Shown: positions 11,501-62,900 of the stretch, one piece after another
Layout: the number at the start of each line of letters is the position of its first letter
How positions within the stretch are numbered: the first letter of the stretch is position 1
Assembly: GCA_041491005.1 (NCBI GenBank)
Contig: JBGPUE010000010.1
Span: forward strand, 178-64,177
Direction of reading: 5' to 3'
DNA: 64,000 nt
Source of the DNA: Candidatus Binataceae bacterium
GTDB taxonomy: Bacteria; Desulfobacterota; Binatia; Binatales; Binataceae
The notes under the pieces: model-generated
Database searches by the model: none
What the model saw: the letters and a program-made list of their open reading frames with translations, nothing else
Told to the model about the DNA's origin: nothing
Program-made: the position numbers and the translations under genes

Positions 11501-14500
11501 GGGTTGGCATAGATGACGTGATTGGCGATGCGCTGGAAGAGGTGCGCTTCGTCGGGACTGACGCCGAGATGGTGCAGCTCCACCTGAGCCTGCGTCCAGG
11601 CCAGAGTGACCGCGCGCTCGAAGGCTGTAAAGTCGTGGTGCTTGTCTGCCAAGTCAAGCGCTTCGACTCGGGAGGGTGCGATCAGGGTCCAGAATGCGAC
11701 GCGCGCCCGGCCACCCGGCGGAATTCTTAAACGGTGGCGAAGGCTGAAGATCGGATCGAGCACGGTGCCGACCGTGTTGGAAAGCGGCCGGCCGTCGATC
11801 ACGGATATCGGCGTTCGGATCCCTCGCGCACGCCCAAGGAACGCCGCCCGGTCGGTCTCGAATTGCAAGTCGCCCACCGTCTCGCCTTCTACTACGGCAA
11901 GGTGGGCTGCCCAGACCGGCGCCTCGCCGGGCGACCGCAGCCGCCGCGTTGCCATCACAGCGCCCACGTCGGCGACGAATTCCGTCTGCACGAACAGCTT
12001 GGAGAAGGCGGGGTGCGCGGCGTCTTCCGCTGGGGGCGCCAAGACGACCTCAGCATAGGAGGTCACCTCGATTTCCCGATACCGGTTTCCAAGGTTTGAG
12101 ATCGATACGCGGCGAACCTCGGCGTCGTCCTCGGGCGAAACCGCGATCTCGAGTGTTGTCGTGAGCGTCCCGTCGCGCCTCGTGATTTCGGCTCGATCCT
12201 CGGAGAACACCACCCCGTAACTATCCGGCTCGACGCCGGTCGGTTGATATCCCGCCGACCATACTTCGCCGGTACGCACATCGCGCAGAAAAACGTACGT
12301 TCCCCAGGAGTCGCAGGTAACGTCTTCTCGCCAACGCGTGACCGCGAGGTCCCGCCAACGGCTGTATCCGGAACCCGCTGCAGTGATCATCACTGCGTAT
12401 CTGCCGTTCGAGAGAAGGTGCGTGCGCGGAATCACGTCGTGTGGCGATCGGAATCGTCGCAGCATCGGCGCAACGATCTCGCGGATGTTGGGGGCCACCT
12501 TCACTTCCTCGGCACGCGGACGCGCAACCAAAACGTCGCGCGGAGTTCGTTCTTGCAGCAAGAGTTCCGTCGCCTGCATGACTGGCGCGGCGTGAAAACG
12601 GGCGCGCATCGTTCCGTTCCGGAGAGCGTCGTCAATCGCGACCAGAGTCATCCCCTGGTGATGCGCCATAAAAGCTCGAACGACCGCCACGTCTTCGCCC
12701 TCAGGGAGGCGCGTCGGCGTGTAGTCAAGAGCCTCATAGTAGCCATAGCGGCCGAGGCCACCGGCCGCAGCGAGACGTGTGAAGTTTCGCGCCGCAGCTT
12801 TGGCATCTACCATCGCGGCGAGGGCCGTTGCGTAAGGGGCGACGACGACGTTCTCGCTGAGTCCGCGCTTGAGCCCCAGTCCAGGGACGCCAAAATTTGA
12901 GTACTGATAGGTGAGCTCCAGATCTCGCGCGCTGTAAGCCGATTCCGAGACACCCCACGGCACGCCGAGCTCGGCGCCATACTTCATTTGCCGGCGGACG
13001 ACGAGGCGATTCGACTGCGCGAGCAGGCTCCCCTCCGGTGCGCGCATCACCAACGACGGCATCAGGTACTCGAACATCGAACCCGACCACGAGATCAGGG
13101 CCGAACCGCGATCTACCGGCGTCAGGTCGCGCCCGAGCCGGAACCAATGGCGCGCCGGCACGTCTCCCTTGGCGATCGCCACGAAGCTGGCCAAGCGTGC
13201 CTCAGAGGCGAGCAAGTCATAGCAGTTTGGATCGAGGCTGCCTTCCGCGACCCGGTACCCAATCGCAAGAAGTTGCCGCGCTGGGTCGAAGAGGAAGCCG
13301 AACTCCATGGCCTCGAACATTTTCCCCGCCATTTCGCCGAGCGCCGCGAGGCGACGTTCGAGCACGCGTGCGGCGTTCGCGGAACGTTCGAAGGCGTCAA
13401 TCAGAGCGTCGGCTCGCACCACCGCGGCAGATACTCCACGGGCGTGCGGGTCAAGTTCCGATCGGTAACGCGTCAGGCCTCTGATCGCCTCTTCGCAGTG
13501 ACCCGGCAGATCGGCAATGGTCGGAACGGATTCGAACAGATAGCCGAGCACCTCCTCCAGCGGAGCGTCTCCATCTACCGCTCTCTCAGCGGCGACGAAC
13601 GCGACGTCGCCCGCGAGCTTCGCCCATGGCATCAACTGTTCGACGTCGCGCTGATGACTCAGGATCGACGCCCGCACCGCTTCTACCCAGTTCAGCACTT
13701 GGGCGCTAGCGTCGTCTCCCCGTTCCTGGTTGAGCGTCCACGCAATGTCGACGGCCGTGTGGGCGTCAAGCGCGAGCCCCGCAAGGCGCCTTCCAACATC
13801 CGCCGGAGTCGTGGCAGGACTTCGCAGCGAAGCGGTGAGAGCGTCGAGTGCGTCCTCGATATGCTTTCGAGTTACCGTTTGAGTCCGCCGATCGTCAGCG
13901 AGCAAACGCAGACACTCGCGGGCGATTTCCAGCGCGTCATCGATCCCGGCGAGCCATCCCGGCCTCGGCACTGGACCGCCGATCATCTCCCGCAAAGCGT
14001 TCTCAAGGGCGATCAGGTGTCCCGCCAGATTCCCGCTATCCACAGACGAGACATATTTGGGGTCTAGCGGACGAAGCTTCCGCGTGTCGTACCAGTTGTA
14101 GAAGTGGCCGTGGAAGCGTTCGAGTCCGCTCATCGTCGTGAGAGTCGCGTCCAACCGCTCCAATGTTTCGAGCACACCCAGCCAGCCGAAATCGTGCGCG
14201 GCGGTCACGGACAGAAGATACAATCCGAGGTTGGTGGGCGACGTCCGATGAGCCAGCATTGGGATTGGTTCTTCCTGGAAGTTGTCAGGCGGAAGCATGT
14301 GATCCTCCGCGGTGACGAAGGTCTCGAAGAAGCTCCAGGTGCGGCGGGCGATGAGCTTGAGTGTCTGCGCATCTGTCTCGGAGGGCGGATTTGGGCCCAC
14401 CATGGGCGGTGGAAGGCTCGCCCATCGCGCGACCGCCGGCGATAGCATCCACAGGATCACGAATGGAGCCGCGATCGGCCATGACCCACCCCCCAAGCAT

Positions 14501-28145: not shown

Positions 28146-30722
28146 GTGCCCACCGAAATCGCAGAAGCCCAACCGGATCCCGTGTCGATCGAGGCGTTAT
28201 TCGAGCGCTGTCAAGTCACCGAGGCGGGCCTCTCGAGCGAAGAGGCTTCCCGCCGCCTCGTGCGATACGGCCCGAACGAACCAGTTCCGCTCCGCCGTGG
28301 TACCGCGATCACTCAGTTCATCCGGTTTTGCAGCAATCCGCTGGTCCTGATTCTCCTATCGGCGTGTGCTATTTCGGCCCTGGTCGGCCAGAGAATCGAT
28401 GCCGCGATCATTGCCGCGATGGTGGCAATCAGCATCGCGCTGAATTTCGTCCAGGCGTACCGGTCAGAACGCGCAGTGCTCCGCCTCCGTGAGCAGGTCG
28501 CACCGAGCGCAACCGCTCTGCGCAACGGACGGTACGTTGAGGTGCCCCGCCGCGCGATCGTGCCGGGAGATATCGTGCGGCTTGCCGCCGGCGATCTGGT
28601 ACCCGCTGACGCGCAGCTCATTCAGAGCCGCGATCTTCACCTTCAGCAGGCGGCGCTGACCGGAGAATCGATGCCGGTCGAAAAGTTCGCCATCGGGAGT
28701 GAACCCGTGGCAGACAAGTCGGCGAGCCTGATCTTTCTTGGCAGTTCGGTCGTTAGCGGCAGTGGCACAGCAGTAGTCATCGCCACGGGATCGGCCACGG
28801 CCTTCGGCGGCATCGCGGCCCGGCTGGCGGTCCGGCCGCCTGAGACCGAGTTCGATCGCGGCACGCGACAGTTCGGTTTCCTGATCATGAGGACGGTCTC
28901 TTTCCTCATCCTGTTCATCCTGCTGGTCAACCTGAGCGCGCATCGCAACGCACTCGAATCACTCCTTTTCGCAGTCGCTCTGGCAGTCGGGCTGACCCCT
29001 GAGTTCCTGCCGATGATCACGACGGTGACGCTCTCGATGGGCGCGGTGAGGATGGCGCGCAAGAAGGTGATCGTAAAGCACCTCATCGCGATCGAAGACT
29101 TCGGCAGTATCGATGTGCTGTGCAGCGACAAGACTGGCACGCTTACTACCGGCACGATGTCACTCGATCGTTCGCTCGACCCCTTCGGTCAGCCGTCGGA
29201 TCGTGCTCTATCGCTCGCCTATCTCAATAGCCGCTTCGAAACGGGCATCAAGAGTCCGCTTGATGCCGCGATATTGGCGAATCCGCGCGACGATGCAGAG
29301 CCTTACCAGAAGCTCGACGAAATCCCGTTTGACTTCGAGCGTCGCCGTCTTTCGATCCTGGCCGGAAGGAACGGCGCCCGTCTCCTTGTTACCAAGGGAG
29401 CGCCTGAGAGCGTCATCGGTGTCAGTGCATATTTCGAAGCTGGCGGAACTACGCATCCGCTGGAGGAAGAGCCACGACGCCGATGCGAAAAGACTTTCCG
29501 GGAGCTCAGCGCGCAGGGCTTTCGCGTGCTCGCGGTGGCGTGTCGCCAGATCGAGGGCCGTGATCGACTGGCGACGGACGATGAGCACGATCTCATCCTC
29601 ACCGGATTCCTAACCTTCTTCGATCCTCCAGTCGGAGATGCGTCAGAATCGCTTGCGGCGCTGCGACGGGACGGAGTGCAGGTAAAGATTCTGACCGGTG
29701 ACAATGAGCTGGTCACAAGGCATGTCTGCGAGCAGGTCGGGATAAAGGCTGAGCGGATCGTGCTCGGAGACGAGGTCCAGGGCATGAGCGACTCGGCATT
29801 GGGTCACGTCGCCGAACAGGTGGACGTCTTCGCGCGTGTGTCGCCGGCTCAGAAAAATCGGATCATTCAGGCTCTCAGGCAGCGCAGCCACGTGGTCGGC
29901 TTCCTGGGTGACGGCATCAATGACGCGCCCTCTCTGCACACCGCCGATGTCGGGATCTCAGTGGCCGGAGCTGTCGATGTAGCCAAGGATGCTGCCGATA
30001 TCATTTTGCTGGAGCACAATCTTCAGGTGCTCCACAGCGGCATCATCGAGGGCCGCAAGGCCTTCGGCAATGTTCTGAAGTATTTGCTGATGGGGACCAG
30101 TTCGAATTTCGGCAACATGTTCAGCATGGCGGCTGCGTCGGTCTTTTTACCATTCCTTCCGATGCTGCCGACCCAGATCCTGCTGAACAATTTCCTCTAT
30201 GATCTTGCCCAGGTGACGATTCCCACCGACAATGTCGACCCGCTGTACATCCGCAAGCCTCAACGCTGGGACATCACGATAATCCGCAACTTTATGCTGG
30301 TGATTGGTCCGATCAGTTCTATCTACGACTTCCTGACCTTCTACGTCCTGTTGAAGGTCTTTCACTCTTCCGAGCAGCTGTTTCACACCGGTTGGTTCGT
30401 CGAGTCGCTCGCGACGCAGACTCTGGTGCTTTTCGTGATCCGAACGGCGGGCGTCCCCTGGAGCAGTCTGCCCAGCCGGCCGCTGGCGGCGACGACCGTG
30501 TTGGTCGTCGTGATCGGCGTGTTGCTGCCGTTCTCTCCGCTCGCGCAGGCTTTGGGGTTTGTGCCCCTCCCCGGCCGCTACTTTGTCTTCCTGACAGTAG
30601 CGACGCTGACCTACCTGTGTCTGGTCGAAGTCGCGAAGCGCTGGCTCATGGGGCGGCTGCTGGCCAAGCCGGACCGGCGCGTCGGCCATCGTGTGCGCCG
30701 ACACTCTGGAGCCGTCGCATGA
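28146..30722 (+). CDS. mgtA: Magnesium-translocating P-type ATPase
   Basis: 858-aa ORF (GTG start) with TGES, DKTGTLT, GDGINDAPSL, LTPEFLPMI and SSNFGNMFSMA, characteristic of the MgtA/MgtB subgroup. Confidence 0.9.
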   Translation: MPTEIAEAQPDPVSIEALFERCQVTEAGLSSEEASRRLVRYGPNEPVPLRRGTAITQFIRFCSNPLVLILLSACAISALVGQRIDAAIIAAMVAISIALNFVQAYRSERAVLRLREQVAPSATALRNGRYVEVPRRAIVPGDIVRLAAGDLVPADAQLIQSRDLHLQQAALTGESMPVEKFAIGSEPVADKSASLIFLGSSVVSGSGTAVVIATGSATAFGGIAARLAVRPPETEFDRGTRQFGFLIMRTVSFLILFILLVNLSAHRNALESLLFAVALAVGLTPEFLPMITTVTLSMGAVRMARKKVIVKHLIAIEDFGSIDVLCSDKTGTLTTGTMSLDRSLDPFGQPSDRALSLAYLNSRFETGIKSPLDAAILANPRDDAEPYQKLDEIPFDFERRRLSILAGRNGARLLVTKGAPESVIGVSAYFEAGGTTHPLEEEPRRRCEKTFRELSAQGFRVLAVACRQIEGRDRLATDDEHDLILTGFLTFFDPPVGDASESLAALRRDGVQVKILTGDNELVTRHVCEQVGIKAERIVLGDEVQGMSDSALGHVAEQVDVFARVSPAQKNRIIQALRQRSHVVGFLGDGINDAPSLHTADVGISVAGAVDVAKDAADIILLEHNLQVLHSGIIEGRKAFGNVLKYLLMGTSSNFGNMFSMAAASVFLPFLPMLPTQILLNNFLYDLAQVTIPTDNVDPLYIRKPQRWDITIIRNFMLVIGPISSIYDFLTFYVLLKVFHSSEQLFHTGWFVESLATQTLVLFVIRTAGVPWSSLPSRPLAATTVLVVVIGVLLPFSPLAQALGFVPLPGRYFVFLTVATLTYLCLVEVAKRWLMGRLLAKPDRRVGHRVRRHSGAVA

Positions 30723-30782
30723 CGGTGTTACCGATCGGGCCGCTCGAGAAATGACGCAAAGCAGCGGCCAGGATCCGCGGCA

Positions 30783-31940
30783 TCATTGTAGACGAAACCG
30801 CGCGTACTGCTCCGCAGAGCTGTCGAAATCGATGCTCGCGTGCTGTGCGCCAACATTGATGTTTCGGAACGCAGCCTGCAACGCGCTGGGATCGTAGACC
30901 GCATGCGCGCCCGAGCCGGTAAACATCCTAACGACCGCGCGCCGGCATAGCTCCGCGGCGTATGCCGCGTGCCATTTGGCACGCACGCGTCCTTCGGTAC
31001 CGGCGGGATCCGCGCTGCCCATCAGCTGGTCGAATTCGGCGAACGTCTCTTGAAGGAGCAACTCGGCCGACTCGATTTCCGCAGCCGCTTCCGCCAATCG
31101 GACCTGAGTCGGTCCATGTTCGGCCTTCGAGGCGCCGGTCAGGATAACCTTGCGCTCGCGCGTCCGGTTGACGAACTGTTCGAGTGCGAATTTGGCGGAT
31201 CCCAGAACAGCGGTCGCGACCGAAACCGACAGGATGGCCTCCGCGGACAGCCGGTACACCGAGGTCGCGTGATTCTTACTGTGCGGGCTCTCACCGCGAA
31301 ACATGATTCGCGTATCGATCGCGCGATGAGCCGGGACCAGGATGCCGCGGGCTACGACGTCCTTGCTGCCGGTCCCCCGCAGACCCATCACATGCCAGGT
31401 GTCGTCGACCTCGATCTCGTGTCGCGGAACGACCACATGCACCAACGGTCCATGCGTCGACGAGTCCGCACAGCCAAGCATCACCCATTGCGCATTGTCC
31501 ACGCCACTGCAGAACTCCCATCGGCCGTCGACCCGGTAGCCGTCGCCTTCCTGCATCGCCGCGCCCTGCCAAGAGAGAGTTCCTGCGACCAACCCGTCAC
31601 GGCCCGCTCCGAATACTTCGTCCTGGGCGCCTTCCGGGAAAGATCCGAGACACCAGTGATGCGCCTCCATCACCATCAGCACCCACCCGCTCGATGGACA
31701 AGCCTGCGAGATGAGCGTGACAGCGTTCCCCAGTGTTCGGAGATTCATTTCGAAGCCGCCGGTGCGCGCGGGTTGTGAGATGCGAAACATACCGGCGGAG
31801 ATCATCGCCTCCATGCTTTCAGGGATGACACGCCGGGCCGCATCGCAAGCCTGGGCGTTGCGGGCAAGCGTTGGCGAGATAGCTGATACGCGCCGCATTA
31901 TTTCGCCGTGGTCGATCCGCATCTGCTCTTCACTCGGCAT
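30783..31940 (-). CDS. Acyl-CoA dehydrogenase-fold flavin-dependent monooxygenase-like protein
   Basis: 385-aa ORF. N-terminal ARNAQACDAARRVIPESMEAMISAGMFRISQPARTGGFE and the overall length resemble the ACAD type-2 / two-component oxygenase (HsaA/C2-like) group. Substrate unknown. Confidence 0.7.
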   Translation of the reverse strand: MPSEEQMRIDHGEIMRRVSAISPTLARNAQACDAARRVIPESMEAMISAGMFRISQPARTGGFEMNLRTLGNAVTLISQACPSSGWVLMVMEAHHWCLGSFPEGAQDEVFGAGRDGLVAGTLSWQGAAMQEGDGYRVDGRWEFCSGVDNAQWVMLGCADSSTHGPLVHVVVPRHEIEVDDTWHVMGLRGTGSKDVVARGILVPAHRAIDTRIMFRGESPHSKNHATSVYRLSAEAILSVSVATAVLGSAKFALEQFVNRTRERKVILTGASKAEHGPTQVRLAEAAAEIESAELLLQETFAEFDQLMGSADPAGTEGRVRAKWHAAYAAELCRRAVVRMFTGSGAHAVYDPSALQAAFRNINVGAQHASIDFDSSAEQYARFRLQ

Positions 31941-32115
31941 CTGCTTGGCAGTTCAACGGATTCTATCGTCGCCGGTTCGTTTGATCGAGCGGCGTTTCAG
32001 AATATCGATTCCGCGAAGTTCTGCGCAGCCGCGCAGCCCGATATTTCGAGCGAGAGTTACCCGATTCGCACACTTTAATGAGTCCTCTTAGAGGAAGGTC
32101 CCCGAAGGGCCGCTT

Positions 32116-33054
32116 CTACGCGTGGACGATTAGATCGGCGAGCGATCGATCGCTATGCAGGCGGTCGATTGCGTCCGCGAGCAGTGGTGCGAGGCTGACG
32201 CGCTGGACCGGGACAACCGCCGGGTCGGGCCCCCTCACGCTGTCGGTATAAAATAGTCGCTTTATGGGTAGTCCGCGCAGGCGCTCGATGGCCGGCCCGA
32301 CGAACAACCCATGGGTGCATACCACCGTGATCTGCGGATCGCATCCCGCCGCGAGCAGGGCGTTGATTGCCGCTTCGATCGTCCCCGCCGTCGTGATCAT
32401 GTCGTCGACGATCAGCGGCGCGAGTCCGCGCACGTCGCCCACCACGCCCCGCGCTTCGACCCGCTCTCCGCTCAGACGGCGCTTGTAGACCACCGCGGTC
32501 GGCGCGTGAAGAGTCCGGGCGTAGCGCTCAGCGAGCTTTACGCCGCCAAGGTCGGGGCTGACGATAACGGTTCGTGACCCGGCTACGGCGCTGATCGCGG
32601 GCACCAGAATCGGCAATGCAGCGAGATGCTCCAGCGGAACGGGAAAGAAACCCTCCAGCGACGTCATATGAAGGTCGACGGCGACGATCCGGCTGACGCC
32701 GACAGTCGCAATCAGATCCGCCGCGATTCGCGCACCGACCGGGCCGCGGCCCGTCGCCCGTCGATCCTGGCGCGCATACCCGAAGTACGGGATGATCGCC
32801 GTCATCCTTTCTGCGCCTGCCCGCCGGCAGGCATCGGCGAGGAAGATTAACTCGAGCAGATGTTCGTCGACGGGCGGCCCCGTAGGCTGCACAAGATAGA
32901 CATCCTGCCCACGCACACTCTGCTCGAGCTCGATGTTGAGCTCGCTGTCGGGAAACCGGCCCACGATGCGCCCCCCCAGCGGGACGCCGAGTCGGTCGGC
33001 GATTGACTCTGCAAGCGGGAGGTTGGCCGATCCGGCAAGGATAGTCAGGTTCAT
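32116..33054 (-). CDS. prs: Ribose-phosphate pyrophosphokinase
   Basis: MNLTILAGSANLPLAESIADRLGV N-terminus (Met at 33054; the listed ORF extends 16 codons further). Also IIPYFGYARQDR, DLH and the PRPP loop LIVDDMITTAGT. Confidence 0.9.
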   Translation of the reverse strand: MNLTILAGSANLPLAESIADRLGVPLGGRIVGRFPDSELNIELEQSVRGQDVYLVQPTGPPVDEHLLELIFLADACRRAGAERMTAIIPYFGYARQDRRATGRGPVGARIAADLIATVGVSRIVAVDLHMTSLEGFFPVPLEHLAALPILVPAISAVAGSRTVIVSPDLGGVKLAERYARTLHAPTAVVYKRRLSGERVEARGVVGDVRGLAPLIVDDMITTAGTIEAAINALLAAGCDPQITVVCTHGLFVGPAIERLRGLPIKRLFYTDSVRGPDPAVVPVQRVSLAPLLADAIDRLHSDRSLADLIVHA

Positions 33055-33191
33055 TGTGCTCTTCCTGCATTCCCGATTCTGCATCGAGAACGTGACGAGC
33101 AATGCTTGCCGCGCCGCGCGGTGACGCTGTCATCGAGCCTAGGCGAGCCAGTGCGGCTGGGCAACTGCACCTCCTCTATCTGAACCGCATG

Positions 33192-33980
33192 CTATTTCGC
33201 CAACGCTTGGCCTTCTTTGGCGGCGCCCGTGCAGCGGAGGGCACACTTGTCGGGGACCGGCCAAAGGCCCGGCGCGTTCGGCTCTATGCGCTCGCCCAGT
33301 GCAATCAGAAAAGGACCTGAAAGTAGATAGCCGGTAGCGAAGAGAAATGCTGCGAGCTGGGGTAAGGCCACTAGAACGCTCAAGGTGACGATCATCGCGA
33401 TCATCGTTGGAAGCGATAGGCGCCGAAGGTTGAGTGATTTGAAGCTCGGATATGGAACGCGTGAAACCATCAGGCCCCCCAAAATCAATGTCAATCCAGC
33501 GATCACTGCACATAGTGTGCGGGGCGCGGTGATCTCGAAGTATTGGTATGCGAGCACGACGCCCGCGACCATTGCGGCGGCAGCGGGAACGGGCAGACCG
33601 ACGAAGCGGCTCTTGTCGACACTACCTGCCTGGATATTGAAGCGCGCGAGGCGCAGCGCCGCACACACGACATAGAGGCCGCAAATCGTCGCGCCCCATA
33701 CACCCAGTGGCTCGAGCGCCCAGGTATAGACGAGCACTGCGGGCGCCACGCCGAAGGCCGTTACATCGGAAAGGCTGTCAAATTCCACTCCAATGGCGCT
33801 GGTGGTGCGCAGGGCGCGAGCTATCGACCCATCGAGCCAGTCGAACACAACCGCGATTTCGGTCATGAGCGCGGCGCGTCCGTAATGACCATGAACGGCG
33901 AAGACCAGCGAGAAGAAACCAATCAAAAGTCCAAGCGAAGTAGTCGCTTCAGGTAGCAGCGCGCTCATAAGCGAGGTCAT
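33192..33980 (-). CDS. pssA: CDP-diacylglycerol--serine O-phosphatidyltransferase (CDP-alcohol phosphatidyltransferase family)
   Basis: DWLDGSIARALRTTSAIGVEFDSLSDVTAFGVAPA matches DG(x)2AR...G(x)3D(x)3D. Multiple TM segments. Start ambiguous (33980 chosen; the listed ORF starts at 34043). Confidence 0.85.
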   Translation of the reverse strand: MTSLMSALLPEATTSLGLLIGFFSLVFAVHGHYGRAALMTEIAVVFDWLDGSIARALRTTSAIGVEFDSLSDVTAFGVAPAVLVYTWALEPLGVWGATICGLYVVCAALRLARFNIQAGSVDKSRFVGLPVPAAAAMVAGVVLAYQYFEITAPRTLCAVIAGLTLILGGLMVSRVPYPSFKSLNLRRLSLPTMIAMIVTLSVLVALPQLAAFLFATGYLLSGPFLIALGERIEPNAPGLWPVPDKCALRCTGAAKEGQALAK

Positions 33981-34093
33981 CTCGCTGCGCGCCTCCTGTC
34001 TGGGAGATGCAGGTCGCACGGCGTCCCTTTTACAACCGTCCACAGCCTGATTTCTCCGGTATCTCGAACGATTCCGGTGCGAGAAATCGCGTT

Positions 34094-34109
34094 TGCAAGG
34101 TTATCGCCG
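34094..34109 (-). promoter_or_regulatory. Candidate sigma-54 promoter ahead of pssA (weakest of the set)
   Basis: The minus strand reads CGGCGATAACCTTGCA, with GG and TTGCA at exact -24/-12 spacing. It lies immediately downstream of the hpf stop codon (2 nt away) and is 52-115 nt from the alternative pssA starts. Confidence 0.3.
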
Positions 34110-34110
34110 G

Positions 34111-34644
34111 CTAGTCAGCCAACGTGACGGTGCTGGCCTGCGGACCCTTCTCGCCCTCTTCTTCGGCGAAGCGGACATGACTGCCGACTTCGAGACGCTC
34201 GAAGCCGGGCGCCAGCACGCTGTTGCGATGGAAGTAGATCTCGCGACCGTCGGGCGTCTCGAGGAATCCGTAGCCGTCATCGCTGAAGAGCCTCGCGACG
34301 CGCGCCAAGGCCGGCCCTTCGTGGCTCTTAACCGCGCCGCGCACCTCGCGCACGTGGTCTTCAAGCCGCCGCCGGGCCGCGTCGAAGGCCTCGCGGATCG
34401 CCGTCATGAGTTCCTCGTCGGACTGATGGCTAATCGCGAGTTCGCCCCTCGGGACCTTCAGGTCGATTCGAATCTTGAACGGACCGCCCCGGCGGTGATG
34501 GCGCACCGGAGCTTCGACCGCGATGCGGCATCCGCTGATTTGGGGATCAAACTGTTCGAGCTTCGCAGCCCTGCGCCGAAGCTCAGCCTCTTCTGCCTCG
34601 GTCAACTGAAAGTTACGCGCTGTGATTTGAACCGGATATTCCAC
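34111..34644 (-). CDS. hpf: Ribosome hibernation factor (HPF/RaiA, S30AE fold) fused to a C-terminal cold-shock domain
   Basis: 177-aa ORF with a GTG start and GAGAGGA SD. The N-terminal ~105 aa are HPF/RaiA-like (VQITARNFQLTEAEEAELRRRAAKLEQF...FKIRIDLKVPRGELAI...EELMTAIREAFDAARRRLED). The C-terminal ~65 aa are CSD-like (ARLFSDDGYGFLETPDGREIYFHRNSVLAPGFERLEVGSHVRFAEEEGEKGPQASTV). Confidence 0.85.
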   Translation of the reverse strand: MEYPVQITARNFQLTEAEEAELRRRAAKLEQFDPQISGCRIAVEAPVRHHRRGGPFKIRIDLKVPRGELAISHQSDEELMTAIREAFDAARRRLEDHVREVRGAVKSHEGPALARVARLFSDDGYGFLETPDGREIYFHRNSVLAPGFERLEVGSHVRFAEEEGEKGPQASTVTLAD

Positions 34645-34670
34645 GTCGTTCCTCTCTTAGCCGAGCTTTC

Positions 34671-34686
34671 CGCAATCCCTGTGCCA
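34671..34686 (-). promoter_or_regulatory. Sigma-54 (-24/-12) promoter of hpf-CSD
   Basis: The minus strand reads TGGCACAGGGATTGCG, a full match to TGGCAC-N5-TTGCW. The -12 GC is 28 nt upstream of the GTG start. Confidence 0.6.
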
Positions 34687-34826
34687 CCAGTCACGAACGC
34701 CAGCTTGGCCGAATCGGCGGCCGTTGTGTCACCAAGAGAGACACGCGTGACCCCGTTGGGCGCAAACTTTGAAGTGACGGGCGTGGCGGTTGGCGGCCGA
34801 CCCTTCTGACGCACGATCGGCGTTCA

Positions 34827-34842
34827 CGGCGCACGTCTTGCA
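34827..34842 (+). promoter_or_regulatory. Candidate sigma-54 promoter of archease-rtcB
   Basis: CGGCGCACGTCTTGCA: GGC and TTGCA at exact consensus spacing, 37 nt upstream of the archease ATG. It is divergent from the hpf promoter. Confidence 0.45.
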
Positions 34843-34877
34843 AGTTGGCCTGATCGGGCTAGGCTCGTCACAGATCG

Positions 34878-35300
34878 ATGCCCAGCGACGAATTCTACCG
34901 TGAGATCGAGCACACCGGGGATGCGGGTGTCGAGCTCGTCGCCACGTCGCGCGCTGAACTGTTCCGCAGGGCCGCGATCGCGATCGCGCGGCTGATGGTG
35001 GCGCCCGAGGGCGTCCGCCCGATCGAGCGGCGCGAGGTGCGGGTCAGTGCAGTGAGCGATGCCGACCTGATGCACGACCTGCTCGCGGCGTTGCTCAACT
35101 TGTTCCTGGTTGAAGGGTTCATTTGGTGCGATGCGGTGGTGAATGAAGACGGCGATTCAGTGCGCGCGGACGTAGTCGGCGAACGCTATGATCCCGCGCG
35201 CCACGAGCTGCGCACCGAGATCAAAGCCGTGACCTACCATCAGCTGTCGGTCGAGCGCGTGGGAGATCGCTGGCAGGCGCAGGTGATTTTCGACATCTAG
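34878..35300 (+). CDS. Archease (RtcB activator)
   Basis: 140-aa ORF with the N-terminal YREIEHTGDAGVELVA (HT.D motif) and C-terminal IKAVTYHQLSVE typical of archease. It lies directly upstream of rtcB. Confidence 0.85.
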   Translation: MPSDEFYREIEHTGDAGVELVATSRAELFRRAAIAIARLMVAPEGVRPIERREVRVSAVSDADLMHDLLAALLNLFLVEGFIWCDAVVNEDGDSVRADVVGERYDPARHELRTEIKAVTYHQLSVERVGDRWQAQVIFDI

Positions 35301-35359
35301 GCTGCCCCGCGCGCAATCGTGCGAAGCGCGGCCGTCGAACGCGTCGGCGGTATCCGGTT

Positions 35360-36796
35360 ATGGAACTCCAGAAGATCAGCGACTTTCTATGGGAAATCCC
35401 GCGCCATGGAGCGATGCGCGTGCCGGGGCGGATTTACGCCAGCCAGCAGATGATCGACGAACTCCGCGATGATCCAGCGCTGACGCAGGTCGCGAACGTC
35501 GCGTGCCTGCCCGGCATCGTCGGCTACTCGCTCGCGATGCCCGATATCCATTGGGGCTACGGATTTCCGATTGGCGGTGTTGCCGCGACCGATGCCGACG
35601 AAGGAGTGATTTCACCCGGCGGTGTCGGCTACGACATCAACTGCGGCGTGCGGCTGATCAAGACCAACCTCGAGTACACGGCCATCGCGGACAAAGTTGA
35701 TCGTCTGGCTGACGCGCTCTTCGATGCTGTGCCCGCGGGCGTTGGCTCCAGCGGCGCGATTCCCGGCCTCGCGACCGACGAGCTCAAACGTCTGCTCGGC
35801 TCCGGCGCCGTATGGGCGATGAACCACGGCTACGCTTCGATGGATGATCTCGAGCACACCGAAGAGAGCGGCCGGCTCGAGATGGCTGACCCATCGGCCG
35901 TCAGCGAGATGGCGCTCAGGCGCGGGCGCATCCAGCTCGGCACACTCGGCTCGGGCAATCACTTCCTCGAATGCGACCGTGTCGATCAGATCTACGACCC
36001 CGACATCGCGCGCGCCTTCGGCCTCGAGCTCGGCCAAGTGACTGTGATTATCCATTCAGGCTCGCGCGGACTGGGCCATCAGATCTGCGACGACCATTTG
36101 CGCGTGATCGGCAAGGCGATGAGCGGTTACGGGATCACTCTACCCGACCGCCAACTCGCCTCGGTGCCGATCCGCTCGCCGGAGGGTCGTGCCTACCTGG
36201 GCGCGATGGCGGCGGCGGCCAACTTCGCCTGGTGCAACCGGCAGATCATGATGCATCTGGCCGAGCGCGCCTTCATGGAGACGCTGGGCACAGGGCCGCG
36301 CGAAGTCGGCTTCTCGTTGCTGTACGACGTTTGCCATAACATCGCCAAGTTCGAGCGCCATGTGGTGGGCGGTGTCGAACGGCGCGTATGTGTGCATCGC
36401 AAAGGTGCAACGCGCGCCTTCGGCCCAGGCCATCCGGCGCTGCCCATCGCCTTTCGAATGATCGGGCAGCCAGTGCTGATCCCCGGTGACATGGGCCGCT
36501 ATTCGTATGTGCTGGTGGGACGCGAACGTGCGATGGCCGAGACCTTCGGTTCGACCTGTCACGGCGCTGGGCGCTTAATGAGCCGCGCCGAAGCCAAGCG
36601 CCGGGCGCGCGGCCGCGACCTACTGGCGGAATTGCGGGAGGCCGGCGTGACGATCAGGTACCAAGGCCGTTCGACAGTCGCGGAGGAAATGCCGGCCGCT
36701 TACAAGGATGTCGCAGACGTGGTCGGAGTGATGGAAGCGGCTGGCGTCAGCAAGCGAGTGGCGCGGCTCAAACCCTTCGCCGTAATAAAGGGTTGA
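35360..36796 (+). CDS. rtcB: RNA 3'-phosphate ligase RtcB
   Basis: 478-aa ORF with MPDIHWGYGFPIGGVAA, GVGYDINCGVR, GSGNHFLE, HSGSRGLGHQ, HRKGATRA and CHGAGR. Confidence 0.95.
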   Translation: MELQKISDFLWEIPRHGAMRVPGRIYASQQMIDELRDDPALTQVANVACLPGIVGYSLAMPDIHWGYGFPIGGVAATDADEGVISPGGVGYDINCGVRLIKTNLEYTAIADKVDRLADALFDAVPAGVGSSGAIPGLATDELKRLLGSGAVWAMNHGYASMDDLEHTEESGRLEMADPSAVSEMALRRGRIQLGTLGSGNHFLECDRVDQIYDPDIARAFGLELGQVTVIIHSGSRGLGHQICDDHLRVIGKAMSGYGITLPDRQLASVPIRSPEGRAYLGAMAAAANFAWCNRQIMMHLAERAFMETLGTGPREVGFSLLYDVCHNIAKFERHVVGGVERRVCVHRKGATRAFGPGHPALPIAFRMIGQPVLIPGDMGRYSYVLVGRERAMAETFGSTCHGAGRLMSRAEAKRRARGRDLLAELREAGVTIRYQGRSTVAEEMPAAYKDVADVVGVMEAAGVSKRVARLKPFAVIKG

Positions 36797-37132
36797 TGCC
36801 GCGTCCATCGGCCTAGCCACCGCTATTGACGTTATTGAGTCCTACGAGTGTGTCAGGCGATGCGCCGAGCGCTCTGGATGCCGTAAGCGTCAGCCGCGTC
36901 GCCGCAGTGCGCGATTACGCGACGCGAATCTGCCTGATTGGCGCTGCTGCATCTAACGGAGTCATTGGTTCCCGGCTGACCCTCCTTACGAAAGCACCCA
37001 TCTCCGACATACTCTGTCTTTCGACATGGCGTTCCAATTCATAAGCAGCGATGGTGCGATTCGCTGGACTTAGACGCGAGCATCGGCGCATCCAGTTGAT
37101 TGTGCGGGGCTGAATACCTCCGCCTGTTTGTG

Positions 37133-37148
37133 CGGCAGGAGAATTGCT
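37133..37148 (+). promoter_or_regulatory. Candidate sigma-54 promoter of usp
   Basis: CGGCAGGAGAATTGCT: GGCA and TTGCT at exact -24/-12 spacing, 26 nt upstream of the ATG at 37173. Confidence 0.5.
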
Positions 37149-37172
37149 CAGGGCTCATGCAATAAGTCGGCG

Positions 37173-37583
37173 ATGAGACTGCTGTTCCGAAAGATTCTTT
37201 GTCCTATCGATTTCGACCGCATCGCGATCGGAGCAATCCAACTCGCGCGCGAGCTAGCCGGGCGAGACGGCGGCCTCGTCTACCTCTTGTGCGTCGTCCC
37301 CAAAGACCGGACTCGTCTGAAAGCCGACTTGGAGCAGGTCGCACACAACAGCTTGCGCGGGATTGGCCGCAAATGGTTCGAGGGAAAAGCGCCGTACGAG
37401 ATCCTCGTTCGCGCCGGCCGGCCAGCGCGGGCGGTGCTTGATGCGGCGGAGGAACTCGGCGTTGACGTCGTGGTGATGGCAACTCATGGGCGAACAGGAA
37501 CCAGGCGTGTGCGTCTGGGCAGCGTTACCGAGGAAGTGGTTCGGCAGTCGACACGACCGGTGGTGACAATCAGGCCAACGTAG
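37173..37583 (+). CDS. Universal stress protein (UspA family)
   Basis: MRLLFRKILCPIDFD... and the C-terminal VVVMATHGRTGTRRVRLGSVTEEVVRQSTRPVVTIRP (G-2x-G-9x-GS/T ATP-binding type). The listed ORF start at 37128 is probably an extension. Confidence 0.85.
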   Translation: MRLLFRKILCPIDFDRIAIGAIQLARELAGRDGGLVYLLCVVPKDRTRLKADLEQVAHNSLRGIGRKWFEGKAPYEILVRAGRPARAVLDAAEELGVDVVVMATHGRTGTRRVRLGSVTEEVVRQSTRPVVTIRPT

Positions 37584-37637
37584 GGCTTGGCCTGCTTCGT
37601 CGATCTTAACGCGCCAAATCGAGGAGGACATCGCACA

Positions 37638-37838
37638 ATGAGCAGATACAATTGGGACGAAATCAACCGCACGGTTGAGGACTTAACCAAGCGTTACAAC
37701 ATCGCAGCGGTCGACAGCGTGACCGTCGGTGGAAATAGCGATGGAGTCGAGTTGACGCTCACCTCGCTGACCCCCGAGCAAGCCGAGCAGATCTTCAGGC
37801 TCATCGGGCTCAAGCAAGTCGAGCTCACAGTGCTCTGA
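37638..37838 (+). CDS. Small hypothetical protein (66 aa)
   Basis: ATG at 37638 preceded by GAGGAGG at a good distance. The sequence MSRYNWDEINRTVEDLTKRYNIAAVDSVTVGGNSDGVELTLTSLTPEQAEQIFRLIGLKQVELTVL has no family I recognise. The coding call rests on the RBS and its position within the operon. Confidence 0.5.
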   Translation: MSRYNWDEINRTVEDLTKRYNIAAVDSVTVGGNSDGVELTLTSLTPEQAEQIFRLIGLKQVELTVL

Positions 37839-38109
37839 TCGCGCATCAAGCCGCCTCACTCTCTCGTTGACGGTCCGCAATGGTAGTCGTCGCGAAGAGC
37901 ACCCTTGTTCCGACGATACGGCGGAGTCGCGTAGATGCGGCGAGGCTGCTTCGTCCCCCGCTTCGATGCCGGGCCTCACGATGTTTGTGTGGAGCGATCC
38001 GGAGCGCGGCTGGCGCCTTTGGAAACACATCAGAGGGGGCTGGCTTACCGTGGTTCACTGTGGCCTACCCGGAAGCTGAGAATTCAGTGCAACGAATCCA
38101 GGAGTTCGA

Positions 38110-38125
38110 TGGCAAGTTTCTTGCG
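38110..38125 (+). promoter_or_regulatory. Candidate sigma-54 promoter of hsp20
   Basis: TGGCAAGTTTCTTGCG: TGGCA and TTGC at exact -24/-12 spacing, 47 nt upstream of the hsp20 ATG, which has a strong AAGGAGGAG SD. Confidence 0.55.
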
Positions 38126-38170
38126 ACACAGCATCATCGAACACCAACAATTTGAAAGGAGGAGAGATCA

Positions 38171-38623
38171 ATGGGAGCATTAACCCCATGGAGGCCGTTT
38201 CGCGAAATGGAGCGATGGGCGCGCAATCTGGAGGGCCGCTTTCCGCGAGTCTTTGAGGACTGGCCGTTTCGGGCCGAGGAAGCGGAGTTTCTGCCGCCGA
38301 TTGAGAGCTTCGTCCAGAACGGCAATATCGTCGTGCGCGCCGACGTTCCCGGACTGGAGGCCAAGGACATCGAGGTCAGCGTTTTGGGCAACGTGCTGAC
38401 GATCAAAGGCGAGCGCAGGGATCAGAAGGAAGTCAAGGCCGAGGATTACATCCGGCGCGAGATCTCCTACGGCTCCTTCGAGCGCAGGCTTACGCTGCCC
38501 GATGGCGCCGATGCCGACAAGGTCAAGGCGCAGTTCAAAAACGGGACGGTCGAGATCACGATGCCGATGGCCAAGGGCGCCAGCCCCAAGAAAGTGCTGG
38601 TGGAGAGCGCAGAGAAGAAGTAG
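38171..38623 (+). CDS. Hsp20 / alpha-crystallin family small heat-shock protein
   Basis: 150-aa ORF with an alpha-crystallin domain: PPIESFVQNGNIVVRADVPGLEAKDIEVSVLGNVLTIKGER...ISYGSFERRLTLP...KAQFKNGTVEITMP. Confidence 0.9.
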   Translation: MGALTPWRPFREMERWARNLEGRFPRVFEDWPFRAEEAEFLPPIESFVQNGNIVVRADVPGLEAKDIEVSVLGNVLTIKGERRDQKEVKAEDYIRREISYGSFERRLTLPDGADADKVKAQFKNGTVEITMPMAKGASPKKVLVESAEKK

Positions 38624-38734
38624 TCAATCGGTCACAGGGGCAGGCGGCTACCACGCATCGCAGTTGTGCCTGCCTCCCCCGCGGCACTGGATTGTCGCAG
38701 CTCACGCGGCCTGACGCGAAAGGAGGAGATTCAG

Positions 38735-39337
38735 ATGCCAGCCGGGTCGACGATCTTGAATACCAATCACGAGCGGGTCGAGAAGCTCCGAACAGTGCTA
38801 GTCAGCCAACGCGACCATGCGTGGGCAAGGGTGCGGGAGTTCCGTCACGACCAGGAAGGCGACGCGATTCCGCCGCCGGCGGATGAGATGGACCTGGCGC
38901 GTTCGACCGCCGACCTCGAGACTCATGCGAGCCTGATCGAACAAGCGGAAGACCGGCTCGCACAAATCGACGACGCGCTGGCGCGGCTCAACGAAGGCCG
39001 CTATGGGATCTGCGCAAAATGCGTCGAGGAGATCGCGGTCGAGCGTCTCAACACGCTGCCCTTCGTGCTGTACTGCGTCGATTGCCAGCGCGAACTCAAC
39101 CGTGCGCGCCGCCGCGGCGAGGGCAGCCTGTCGCGCAGTTTCGGCCGCCGCTGGGAGACGCCGCTGGAGATGGATGAATCGCTGGAGAGGACCGACGCGA
39201 TGAGCCAGCCCGAGGAAGAAACCACCATACGCGAAGGCCGGCCTTTCGGCCGCGAAGAGGGCACTCCAGACCACGGCCGGATGCCGCGTACGGGCAGGGG
39301 CTTGGTTCGGCGCGGACGGCCCAAGCGCAGTGCGTAG
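38735..39337 (+). CDS. DksA/TraR-family C4 zinc-finger protein with a long basic C-terminal extension
   Basis: ATG at 38735 after AAGGAGGA. It has a coiled-coil region with DEMDLA (DxxDxA tip motif) and the zinc finger CAKC-x17-CVDC. About 80 further residues are rich in Arg/Glu/Gly. Confidence 0.8.
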   Translation: MPAGSTILNTNHERVEKLRTVLVSQRDHAWARVREFRHDQEGDAIPPPADEMDLARSTADLETHASLIEQAEDRLAQIDDALARLNEGRYGICAKCVEEIAVERLNTLPFVLYCVDCQRELNRARRRGEGSLSRSFGRRWETPLEMDESLERTDAMSQPEEETTIREGRPFGREEGTPDHGRMPRTGRGLVRRGRPKRSA

Positions 39338-39355
39338 TCGCGCAGGGGATACCGG

Positions 39356-39802
39356 ATGAGCAAACTATTCAACCGGATTCTCTGCCCGATCGCGTTCGAG
39401 CACGAGTCGTTGAGCGCCCTCGATCTGGCCATAGCGATCGCGCAGCAGAACGACGCGACCCTCGTGCTGCTCAACGTCGCGCCGCTCCCAATCGGAGCCG
39501 GCGAATTCGCGCCGACGCTCGATCCGTATCCCGCGATCGAGCAAGTGGCGCGCGAACGGCTTGAGCGACTGGCCCACGATCGGCTTGAAGGCAAGGTCGC
39601 ATACAACACCCATGTCGTCGCGGGCGATCCGGCGACGCAGATCCTCCGTGCGATCGAGGCCTTCGCCGCCGATCTGGTCGTGATGGGGACGCATGGGCGC
39701 AAGGGCGTCAAACATCTGCTGTTGGGGAGCGTCGCGGAGAAGGTCGTGCGCGAGTCACCGCGGCCTGTGCTGACCGTGCGTCCCGCAGAGGAAGCGCGCT
39801 GA
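39356..39802 (+). CDS. Universal stress protein (UspA family)
   Basis: 148-aa ORF with NRILCPIAFEHES... and LVVMGTHGRKGVKHLLLGSVAEKVVRESPRPVLTVRP. Confidence 0.85.
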   Translation: MSKLFNRILCPIAFEHESLSALDLAIAIAQQNDATLVLLNVAPLPIGAGEFAPTLDPYPAIEQVARERLERLAHDRLEGKVAYNTHVVAGDPATQILRAIEAFAADLVVMGTHGRKGVKHLLLGSVAEKVVRESPRPVLTVRPAEEAR

Positions 39803-39828
39803 CGGCTTGATACGCGGGAGGCAGACAC

Positions 39829-40479
39829 TTGCAGATAACTACCGACTCAGTTGAACTTGAGGGCGACCTCGAGATGCCGGCGGGCGTTGCGCGGGGAATC
39901 GTGATCTTCGCGCATGGGAGCGGAAGCAGCAGGCTCAGCCCGCGTAACATGTACGTGGCTGCCCGTTTGCGTGCGGCCGGAGTCGCCACATTGCTTTTCG
40001 ACCTGCTCACCGAGGCCGAGGCGCTGGATCGCCAAAACGTCTTCGATATGGAGCTGCTCGCCCGCCGCTTGCGGGCCGCTACCGCATCGGTGCGCCGCCA
40101 TCGGCTCGCCGGGATACTACCGGTCGGCTATTTCGGCGCCAGTACCGGCGCTGCTGCTGCACTAATCGCCGCAACGCGCGATCCAGCGATCACCGCGATC
40201 GTGTCGCGCGGTGGGCGACCCGACCTCGCGGGAGATGCGCTCGCTCAGGTGAAGGCGCCGACGCTGCTCATCGTCGGCGGCGAAGACCGCGAAGTGCTGG
40301 AGTTGAATCGGCGCGCGCTCAGGCGCCTGAGCTGCGAGAAAGAACTCCGGGTAGTTCCGGGTGCGACGCATCTGTTCGAGGAGCCGGGAACGCTCGACGA
40401 GGTAGTGAAGCTCGCCAGCGATTGGTTCGTGCGCCATCTGCACGCTCACCCGGGCGAAAAGGAGACCCATGTTCACTAA
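39829..40479 (+). CDS. Dienelactone-hydrolase-like alpha/beta hydrolase
   Basis: 216-aa ORF (TTG start as listed) with GIVIFAHGSGSSRLSPRNMYVAARLRAAGVATLLFDLLT and the nucleophile elbow FGASTGAAAAL. Its 3' end overlaps the next gene by 11 nt. Confidence 0.8.
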   Translation: MQITTDSVELEGDLEMPAGVARGIVIFAHGSGSSRLSPRNMYVAARLRAAGVATLLFDLLTEAEALDRQNVFDMELLARRLRAATASVRRHRLAGILPVGYFGASTGAAAALIAATRDPAITAIVSRGGRPDLAGDALAQVKAPTLLIVGGEDREVLELNRRALRRLSCEKELRVVPGATHLFEEPGTLDEVVKLASDWFVRHLHAHPGEKETHVH

Positions 40480-41173
40480 TCGCCAGGATGCGGGACGCCG
40501 GCTCGCCAAGGCTCTCGCCCGCTACAAGGATGACCATCCCGTCGTGCTGGCACTGCCGCGCGGTGGAGTTCCGGTCGGTTTCGAGGTAGCCAAGGCGCTG
40601 AGCGCGCCGCTGGACATTATCGTCGTGCGCAAGCTGGGCGCTCCCGGACAACACGAGCTGGGGATCGGCGCGGTCGTCGACGGCGACCATCCGCAGACCG
40701 TGCTCAATGAGGAACTGCTGCGAAGGATCGATGTGCCCAAGAGTTACCTCGAAGCAGAGATCCTGCGCGAGCTTGAGGAGATCCACCGCCGCCAGCAGAC
40801 CTACCGCAAGGGGCATCCACCGGTCGATCCAGCCGGGCGGATTGTAATCGTCGTCGATGATGGGATCGCGACTGGCGCCTCGATACGCGCGGCGTTGCGC
40901 GGTCTGCGAAAGCTCGCTCCCCGCCGTCTGGTGCTCGCCGTGCCGGTCGCACCCGCCGAGACGATCGAGTCGCTCAGAGCCGAGGTCGACGAGGTGGTTT
41001 GTCTTGCGACCCCGCCCGATTTCTTCGCTATCGGACAGTACTATGACGATTTCAGGCAGACTTCTGACGCGCAGGTAGTCGAGCTGCTCGACAAGGCGCG
41101 CAATCGTGTGCTGGCGCCCTCGCCGCCAGCGGCACGCTCTCCATCAGAAGAGAGCAAAGCGCCCTCCTGCTAG
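40469..41173 (+). CDS. Phosphoribosyltransferase-domain protein
   Basis: 234-aa ORF with MFTNRQDAGRRLAKAL...VVLALPRGGVPVG and the PRPP-binding loop IVIVVDDGIATGAS. Confidence 0.85.
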   Translation: MFTNRQDAGRRLAKALARYKDDHPVVLALPRGGVPVGFEVAKALSAPLDIIVVRKLGAPGQHELGIGAVVDGDHPQTVLNEELLRRIDVPKSYLEAEILRELEEIHRRQQTYRKGHPPVDPAGRIVIVVDDGIATGASIRAALRGLRKLAPRRLVLAVPVAPAETIESLRAEVDEVVCLATPPDFFAIGQYYDDFRQTSDAQVVELLDKARNRVLAPSPPAARSPSEESKAPSC

Positions 41174-60163: not shown

Positions 60164-60238
60164 TTGCGCGGCTGCCCTGTCGATCCGGTCTCGGCAGGGA
60201 TCCCTTCCTATTATCCATCTAAGGTCAGCTCGATAGTA

Positions 60239-60844
60239 TCATCTCTCGTTGCGAACTTGCCGAGTGCGGTCCGGGGACAATGCGTCGAGGGCGAGGTTCA
60301 GGCGCAAAACATTCACCCCGGGCTCGCCGAAGATTTCGGCCCATCGCCGACTTGTATTCACCCTGACTAGCCGGCGTACCGCGTCTTCGGCCAAGCCTCT
60401 GGTCTTTGCGACGCGGGCGACCTGGATATCCGCGGCGGCCGGGCTGATCTCGGGATCCAATCCACTACCCGACGCAGTGACCAGATCGATCGGTACCTGT
60501 GCCGGCCGCACGCCCTCGGTTTCGACCACCGCCTTGAGCCGCGTCTGGACGGCGTCGATCAGCGTCTTGCTGGTTGGGCCGAGGTTCGAGCCGCCCGAAC
60601 TCAATCCATCGTAGCCCTTCGCCCCAGCCGTTGAGGGCCGCCCGTGAAAGTTGCGCGCACTTGAGAAGTTCTGTCCGATAAGTGACGACCCGACCAGCTT
60701 GCCGTTCACATATACGAGGCTGCCATTGGCCTGTAGCGGGAAGAGCAACTGGGCCACCGCCCAGACTGCCAGCGGGTAGATGACGCCCGTTAGCAACGTC
60801 ATCACCACGGTAAGCCGGGTTGCGATCCACAGTGAACGCATCAT
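60239..60844 (-). CDS. kdpC: Potassium-transporting ATPase subunit C
   Basis: 201-aa ORF with an N-terminal TM, FHGRPS and SGGSNLGPTS...SGSGLDPEISPAAA, typical of KdpC. Confidence 0.9.
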   Translation of the reverse strand: MMRSLWIATRLTVVMTLLTGVIYPLAVWAVAQLLFPLQANGSLVYVNGKLVGSSLIGQNFSSARNFHGRPSTAGAKGYDGLSSGGSNLGPTSKTLIDAVQTRLKAVVETEGVRPAQVPIDLVTASGSGLDPEISPAAADIQVARVAKTRGLAEDAVRRLVRVNTSRRWAEIFGEPGVNVLRLNLALDALSPDRTRQVRNER

Positions 60845-60851
60845 CTGTACC

Positions 60852-62894: not shown

Positions 62895-62900
62895 GACTTC

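Follow-up and report, generated by a model that had tools for sequence, protein, structure and literature searches.

A putative pair of divergent sigma-54 promoters between a ribosome-hibernation-type gene and archease-rtcB in a Candidatus Binataceae bacterium

Introduction

What starts transcription on the two sides of a short gap between a gene for a putative ribosome-hibernation-type factor and an operon for an RNA ligase, and are the two sides switched on together? We address this question in a stretch of 64,000 nucleotides from Candidatus Binataceae bacterium (contig JBGPUE010000010.1), the whole of which we call the window. A gap of 233 bp (34645-34877) separates the GTG start codon of hpf-CSD, which combines an HPF-type domain with a cold-shock domain (CSD), from the ATG of archease, which is followed by the RNA ligase gene rtcB. 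An earlier examination of the letters alone, here called the sequence-only reading, had proposed that the gap holds two back-to-back sigma-54 promoters with an enhancer of GTCAC/GTGAC repeats shared between them, and had linked the locus to the RtcR-dependent rtcBA operon. The sequence features that it described are all present at the positions it gave, and Pfam matches show that it had named the genes correctly: HPF(S30AE)-CSD, archease and RtcB.

The sigma-54 holoenzyme forms closed complexes that require an ATP-dependent enhancer-binding protein. With moderate confidence, we interpret the gap as a divergent promoter region served in both directions by sigma-54 RNA polymerase. Transcription of hpf-CSD would begin near 34660 on the minus strand, from the left -24/-12 element and with a short leader that contains a Shine-Dalgarno sequence, and the right element would start archease-rtcB near 34853 on the plus strand. 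One or more activators would bind in the 140-nt space between the elements, where they are expected because the closed complexes need such a protein, and would contact each polymerase by DNA looping. Both promoters would be part of a broader group of sigma-54 promoters spread over the surrounding island of stress genes. We compared the locus with 80 hpf-CSD genome loci and 80 RtcB metagenome loci; single loci are given by L numbers.

The left site and its recurrence upstream of hpf-CSD

The site that points towards hpf-CSD, TGGCACAGGGATTGCG, keeps the GG-N10-GC core intact and has one mismatch to TGGCAC-N5-TTGCW, at the final W. Against the extended consensus TGGCACG-N4-TTGCW it again has a single mismatch among the 11 specified positions, with a purine at position 7. 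The sequence-only reading had called it a full-consensus promoter; the placement and the closeness to the consensus hold, and strictly the last W is missed. Position 7 was left free in our search pattern, and it is a purine in 34 of the 40 distinct sites of relatives, in agreement with the known consensus TGGCAC(G/A). The site ends 26 nt before the GTG, which would leave a leader of about 16 nt. The start codon itself is placed by the N-terminus of the protein, which aligns with the invariant M1 of the family.

This family is large and diverse: we found 5592 homologues with the same S30AE + CSD architecture, in Binatia, Methylomirabilota, Nitrospirota, Thermoanaerobaculia, Gammaproteobacteria and other groups, and the nearest relatives outside the population of the window are just 66% identical. 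Of the 80 hpf-CSD loci, 22-23 have a sigma-54 site on the strand of the gene in the roughly 200-300 nt before it, vs 3-7 with a site on the opposite strand. The comparative count gives 23/77 same-strand vs 3/77 opposite-strand sites, spread over several phyla, at a background density of 0.10 sigma-54-like sites per kb-strand. On the hpf-CSD side the -24/-12 element recurs in part of the relatives, the nearest ones excepted; on the archease-rtcB side it is rare, as detailed below. Sites also precede hsp20 relatives (7/15 forward vs 0/15 reverse) and usp relatives (13/30 forward vs 7/30 reverse, several of the reverse sites being the partner in a divergent pair). Taken together, the match to the consensus, the placement before the gene and the repeated occurrence across the family make the left site very probably a real sigma-54 promoter of hpf-CSD.

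Back-to-back sites in related stress loci

The rightward, correctly spaced second site of the sequence-only reading, CGGCGCACGTCTTGCA, is present. It also has an intact GG-N10-GC and a purine at position 7, and it ends 35 nt before the archease ATG, so that transcription would most likely start near 34853. We regard it as a plausible and fairly probable sigma-54 promoter of archease-rtcB, weaker than the left one.

Its position is part of a wider pattern. The window has ten sites with an intact GG/GC and no more than two mismatches. Five of them are found in the 150 nt that precede a start codon on the same strand, against an expectation of 5% (P = 8e-5; start codons from a hand-curated list). 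Four of these five fall within 3.5 kb, 24-45 nt before the starts of hpf-CSD, archease, usp (CGGCAGGAGAATTGCT) and hsp20 (TGGCAAGTTTCTTGCG); the usp start used here, 37173, agrees with public gene calls of 136 aa. The left and right sites are exactly 140 nt apart, and we estimate that about 0.003 back-to-back pairs inside one divergent intergenic region would be expected for the window.

Such pairs are frequent in related loci. In 1.41 Mb of these loci together with the window we counted 24 divergent site pairs 60-260 nt apart, vs 2.9 expected from site density; a few of the 24 are homologous duplicates (L026/L036, L002/L005). Their gaps cluster at 116-181 nt, and two L026/L036 pairs have the 140 nt of the window. 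Pairs lie in L009 (1721-1908), L026 (2594-2805, 5758-5921, 7360-7531), L032 (11221-11390), L036 (4355-4567, 5749-5912, 7146-7317, 10998-11190), L041 (1868-2037, 9106-9337), L060 (10785-10932) and L077 (8107-8264), and include one between an OsmC-like gene and hpf-CSD in L026/L036. These two loci have the same gene set as the island in the window, plus a CBS protein and OsmC, and the L036 island encodes a PAS histidine kinase and an NtrC-type activator. Back-to-back sigma-54 pairs thus appear to be a recurrent design in related stress loci. The comparisons suggest that dormancy-type genes (hpf-CSD, usp, hsp20, OsmC and sometimes rtcB) carry sigma-54 promoters, often paired, in Binatia, Methylomirabilota and neighbouring uncultured lineages.

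In many of the pairs a palindrome, TTTGCAC-N2-GTGCAAA or TTTCyCA-N4-TGrGAAA, sits in the middle, at 70-100 nt from each of the two -24 elements. It is a candidate for the enhancer that would control a stress regulon (usp, hsp20, hpf-CSD, OsmC) in Binatia- and Methylomirabilota-like metagenome-assembled genomes (MAGs). The palindromes TTTGCAC-N2-GTGCAAA and TTCTCA-N4-TGAGAA are absent from the island of the window. An enrichment of A-rich 6-mers relative to mononucleotide shuffles was discarded as an artefact of mixed composition, and the palindrome family alone survived inspection.

One activator or two

A number of observations weigh against a divergent sigma-54 promoter region, and they are given in this and the next section together with the alternatives that they favour. 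If both promoters are real, the chances that the same activator drives them are about even. Both could instead function with separate activators and separate sites, their adjacency being a lineage-specific accident of gene order without coupling. This alternative, which differs from the preferred reading solely in the coupling, seems unlikely to us, if well short of negligible. It draws on the distribution of the gene pair. The sequence-only reading had counted on other genomes that carry the hpf-CSD/archease-rtcB divergon; none of the 80 hpf-CSD genome loci and none of the 80 RtcB metagenome loci has it, the latter having no hpf-CSD within 4 kb. The divergon is confined to near-identical contigs of the same species-level population (L161-L165, L167); the MAGs GCA_041498995.1, GCA_041483395.1 and GCA_041493145.1 and the 106-kb JGI contig Ga0534150_0000107 have the locus. 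Elsewhere hpf-CSD is paired with OsmC (L026/L036), with hsp20 (L009) or, in Candidatus Binatus soli (L006), with a divergent NAPRTase-prs-rtcB-archease operon. Nor do the regions upstream of the four candidate promoters of the window have a motif in common beyond chance: they share about 2 10-mers per pair, as many as chance would give. On the other side, 140 nt leave little room for two independent enhancers, and several related pairs have a single central palindrome at similar distance from both -24 elements. In addition, rtcB, hpf-CSD, usp and hsp20 are loosely linked in the Binataceae loci L006, L007 and L018, with rtcB 2-5 kb from hpf-CSD in the last two. Judged by these loci, the linkage is loose in the clade and the direct pairing of hpf-CSD with archease-rtcB is lineage specific.

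The sequence between the two sites does little to single out a shared enhancer. The four pentamers, the inverted repeat GTCAC-N14-GTGAC and the nested GTGTC/GACAC repeat (with a spacer of N9) that had been taken for one are all present, and the chance estimate that went with them, about 0.3 pentamers per 140 bp, is close to our recomputed 0.25. Once any pentamer is allowed to count, 3.3% of randomly drawn 140-bp stretches of the window show an equally extreme over-representation (corrected p = 0.033), and the inter-promoter segment itself holds CGGCC/GGCCG five times. Seven strain-level relatives cover the copy at 34747, the right arm of GTCAC-N14-GTGAC; in four of them two adjacent changes have turned it into GTGCT, so that the inverted repeat is not maintained. 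Upstream of 43 sigma-54 sites in relatives, counts of GTCAC/GTGAC are mostly 0-1, with no enrichment. We rejected the pentamers as a likely enhancer because they were chosen after the fact, include a variable copy and are absent from other lineages; that they are activator binding sites is improbable at best. The best candidate activator site, and a weak one, would be the TGTC-N9-GACA dyad, which is unchanged in both haplotypes of the population and is centred about 75 nt from the left presumed start and about 118 nt from the right one. It resembles the GlrR-type site TGTC-N10-GACA (PMC4987338), its spacer being one base shorter; by chance, about 2 perfect 5+5 dyads with spacers of 0-16 nt are expected per 140 bp.

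The genes of the window do not point to a particular activator either. No activator gene adjoins the hpf-CSD/archease locus, and rpoN was not seen in the 64 kb. The presence of one gene with a Sigma54_activat domain, the only sigma-54 activator gene in the window, implies that a sigma-54 system is present. As a specific candidate for the gap this gene was rejected, because it sits at the end of a kdp operon; as an orthologue of the activator of the L036 island it was rejected too, because their 41% identity is generic for the NtrC family.

Promoter or chance match upstream of archease

Another alternative retains only the hpf-CSD promoter as real, takes the right site for a chance match and has archease-rtcB transcribed from another promoter. 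We consider it doubtful, and the evidence on it is divided. The right site is the weaker of the pair, with two mismatches (C at position 1, G at position 5), and sites of this kind arise by chance at about 0.08-0.10 per kb-strand. A sigma-54 site was found upstream of none of 43 archease relatives and of just 3 of 79 rtcB relatives, so that the -24/-12 element recurs far less here than on the left. Upstream of archease or rtcB in the metagenome loci, the counts of 5/73 forward vs 3/73 reverse are those of background, and some of these sites are artefacts. The archease ATG has no clear Shine-Dalgarno sequence visible upstream. A sigma-70-like TTGCAA-N16-TAGGCT (34838-34865) can also be read, overlapping the supposed -12 element; with 4/6 and 3/6 matches it falls below the minimum of the promoter scan and would leave a leader of about 5 nt, and we discarded this hand-read element as too weak. 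The scan of 34000-35400 found no sigma-70-like promoter and no intrinsic terminator.

Other observations argue for a promoter. From the site densities, a correctly oriented site of this kind would turn up by chance in the 233-bp gap in only about 2% of cases, and pairs with this gap length are strongly over-represented. Both deviations of the right site are the commonest ones at their positions in the sites of relatives (C1 in 7/40, G5 in 8/40), that is, those favoured by the clade. Three of the closest Binatia-like rtcB genes carry related sites: AGGCACAGCTTTTGCA in L018 (~3972-3987, minus strand), GGGCACAACCTTTGCG in L084 (~252-267) and AGGCATAGCCTTTGCG in L085 (~990-1005). These end 13-15 nt before the rtcB ATG, so that the mRNAs would be almost without a leader. 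The divergent usp gene of L085 also has a site, and the usp-rtcB gap, read by eye, looks like a further pair; as AGGCATAGCCTTTGCG has 3 mismatches, it is not among the 24 counted. We also observed that the hpf-CSD sites of L012, L013 and L017 are equally close to their start codon.

Within the population of the window, the right site is unchanged in strain-level relatives, and the left site keeps all its consensus positions, with a single change within the spacer. The intergenic DNA there has two haplotypes that differ at six positions, none of them a specified promoter position; all 22 such positions would be missed by chance with a probability of about 0.55. Because the relatives differ at merely six positions, conservation of the promoter cores among them carries little weight.

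The remaining points against the preferred reading, that of a divergent sigma-54 promoter region, concern the nearest relatives and the number of sites. The loci nearest by hpf-CSD identity (L001-L003, L005, L007) have no sigma-54 site. Five loci of a Binataceae subgroup have a homologous leader before hpf-CSD; two of them (L004 and L014) keep both elements, and either the -24 or the -12 element is gone in L006, L008 and L010. Across the window, sigma-54-like sites with at most two mismatches number 19 vs 26 in shuffles, those with at most one mismatch 2 vs 1.6 expected, and the GG/GC-intact sites with at most two mismatches 10 vs 13.6 +/- 3.2 in Markov simulations. The total is not above chance, so that the case for any single site has to come from where it lies and from comparisons. 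That neither site functions, both being chance matches in a G+C-rich intergenic region, would fit these counts at or below chance and is very improbable in view of the positional enrichment, the recurrence of sites upstream of hpf-CSD, hsp20 and usp, and the excess of divergent pairs.

Genes and features of the window

The features of the gap and the genes that bear on it are collected in Table 1. In hpf-CSD, the S30AE domain (PF02482; HPF/RaiA) spans residues 5-99 and the cold-shock domain (PF00313) residues 120-175; the C-terminal part thus holds the latter, and the protein is without the C-terminal dimerisation domain of long HPF. A search of the gap against Rfam gave no family at E up to 1.

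Table 1. Positions in the window of the features discussed in the text.
Feature	Position	Strand	Details
hpf-CSD, putative ribosome-hibernation-type factor	34111..34644	-	177 aa, GTG start; Pfam Ribosomal_S30AE 6e-12 and CSD 2.9e-11
Shine-Dalgarno-like GAGAGGA	34650..34656	-	GAGG 6 nt before the hpf-CSD GTG; good ribosome-binding site
Probable sigma-54 (-24/-12) promoter of hpf-CSD, TGGCACAGGGATTGCG	34686..34671	-	GG 34685-34684, GC 34673-34672
Inter-promoter region	34687..34826	.	140 nt, where an upstream activating sequence for one or both promoters is expected
GTCAC/GTGAC pentamers	34690..34778	.	Copies at 34690, 34728, 34747, 34774; a fifth at 34867
Dyad GTGTC-N9-GACAC	34726..34744	.	TGTC-N9-GACA core 34727-34743
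Candidate sigma-54 promoter of archease-rtcB, CGGCGCACGTCTTGCA	34827..34842	+	GG 34828-34829, GC 34840-34841
archease	34878..35300	+	Pfam Archease 9e-37
RtcB RNA ligase	35360..36796	+	Pfam RtcB 4e-174; 59 nt after archease
Sigma-54-like site CGGCAGGAGAATTGCT	37133..37148	+	24 nt before usp ATG 37173
Sigma-54-like site TGGCAAGTTTCTTGCG	38110..38125	+	45 nt before hsp20 ATG (38171-38623)
Sigma-54 activator gene	55831-57486	-	Sigma54_activat 1e-66; receiver, AAA+ and HTH_8 domains

The gap lies in a stress-gene island at about 28-41 kb of the window (28146-41173) that encodes a P-type cation ATPase, prs, hpf-CSD, archease-RtcB, usp and hsp20, usp being the gene next after the archease-rtcB operon. 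The same island also has a dksA-like zinc-finger gene, a second usp, a dienelactone-hydrolase-like gene and a phosphoribosyltransferase.

Several further features of hpf-CSD and its relatives were seen in the comparisons. The residues of the S30AE domain that correspond to C39, H49 and H50 of the window protein are invariant across the 28 members of an alignment. In L018 (~5830-5900) and L021 (~5880-5920), from one MAG, tandem copies of GGATCATTGCTCT upstream of hpf-CSD overlap a TGGTGCGATCATTGCT site. The homologous leader of L004, L006, L008, L010 and L014 has the form cttcagcggactgtgtctcaaaactcgacgcc...ggtgaattcaaATG, 50-70 nt upstream of hpf-CSD, and may itself be the conserved feature, rather than the sigma-54-like element just upstream.

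Farther from the gap, the region 55831-63851 (minus strand) encodes a partial kdpA, kdpB and kdpC, a protein with a KdpD N-terminal part and a Usp domain, a HAMP-PAS histidine kinase and the sigma-54-type response regulator of Table 1. This arrangement stands in place of the classical KdpD/KdpE pair and suggests that kdp is under sigma-54 control. The sole other one-mismatch site of the window, TGGCACGCAGATCGCT (2269-2284, plus strand), reads TCGC at -12 instead of TTGC; it lies inside the end of a GT2 gene, 124 nt before a gene for a methyltransferase/glycosyltransferase of 1406 aa (2409-6629). An open reading frame of 2954 aa (8578-17442, minus strand), with GH94 supersandwich and catalytic domains and a glucoamylase-like domain, looks like a giant protein of the cyclic beta-1,2-glucan synthase type.

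Significance

If both promoters are real, a hibernation-type factor and RtcB/archease would be under tightly gated, enhancer-dependent transcription, and sigma-54 control of rtcB would extend beyond the RtcR systems of Proteobacteria. The locus reveals no new mechanism: divergent sigma-54 pairs, sigma-54-controlled rtcB and HPF-Csp fusions have all been described already. Of greater interest is a by-product: Binatia-like bacteria appear to have a sigma-54 stress regulon with promoters in pairs, and this offers a testable way into the question of how these bacteria, abundant in soil and sediment, go into dormancy and come out of it.

Comparison with known systems

In Escherichia coli and Salmonella, rtcBA is dependent on sigma-54 and RtcR (rsr-yrlBA-rtcBA; PMC4987338, reviewing Genschik 1998). 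The window is like these systems in having an RtcB operon behind a probable -24/-12 promoter and in the link to stress on the translation apparatus. It is unlike them in that the partner of RtcB is archease and not the RtcA cyclase, that the divergent gene is hpf-CSD and not the activator, and that most archease-rtcB relatives of the window are without a sigma-54 site. The RtcR-type link drawn by the sequence-only reading finds no counterpart here, as no RtcR gene (CARF-AAA+-HTH) lies near the locus or elsewhere in the 64 kb.

The hyc/hyp genes, served by the one activator FhlA, have the geometry of a divergent sigma-54 pair. The same is seen at zraP/zraSR (ZraR) in enterobacteria (PMC4987338). 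Both cases resemble the putative pair of the window in their back-to-back -24/-12 promoters about 100-200 bp apart, with an enhancer expected between them. They differ in that the activator and its sites are known, the zra activator being encoded in one of the two operons, whereas the window offers candidate sites alone.

HPF variants fused to Csp domains were noted recently (bioRxiv 10.1101/2025.11.04.686544). Like hpf-CSD, these variants keep the S30AE N-terminus and have a Csp/CSD domain where long HPF has its dimerisation domain. A term search of that source gave no mention of a sigma-54 promoter or of the regulation of these variants. A limited literature search likewise returned no paper on sigma-54 promoters before HPF-type genes.

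The DosR regulon of Mycobacterium tuberculosis includes usp genes, Hsp20 (hspX) and the P-type ATPase ctpF. It also contains the HPF isoform Rv0079/RafH, the RtcB Rv2631 and the phosphoribosyltransferase Rv0571c (PMC5309233; bioRxiv 10.1101/2025.11.04.686544), so that its gene content overlaps that of the island in the window. A literature search for Rv2630 as an archease found nothing. DosR differs in being a response regulator of the LuxR/NarL type that acts at promoters of the sigma-70 class; its genes are scattered over nine blocks, and the C-terminal part of its HPF isoform is different. One could picture the present locus as a node of a sigma-54-driven, dormancy-type regulon of Binatia-like bacteria, a functional counterpart of the DosR regulon in which the HPF-CSD fusion, archease-RtcB, usp and hsp20 would be co-induced from paired promoters and a single activator in the gap would fire ribosome silencing together with RNA repair. 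In this complete form the picture is speculative, and we think it rather unlikely. Since the DosR regulon unites an HPF isoform with RtcB, the co-regulation of hibernation and RNA repair nevertheless has a precedent, under a regulator of a different class.

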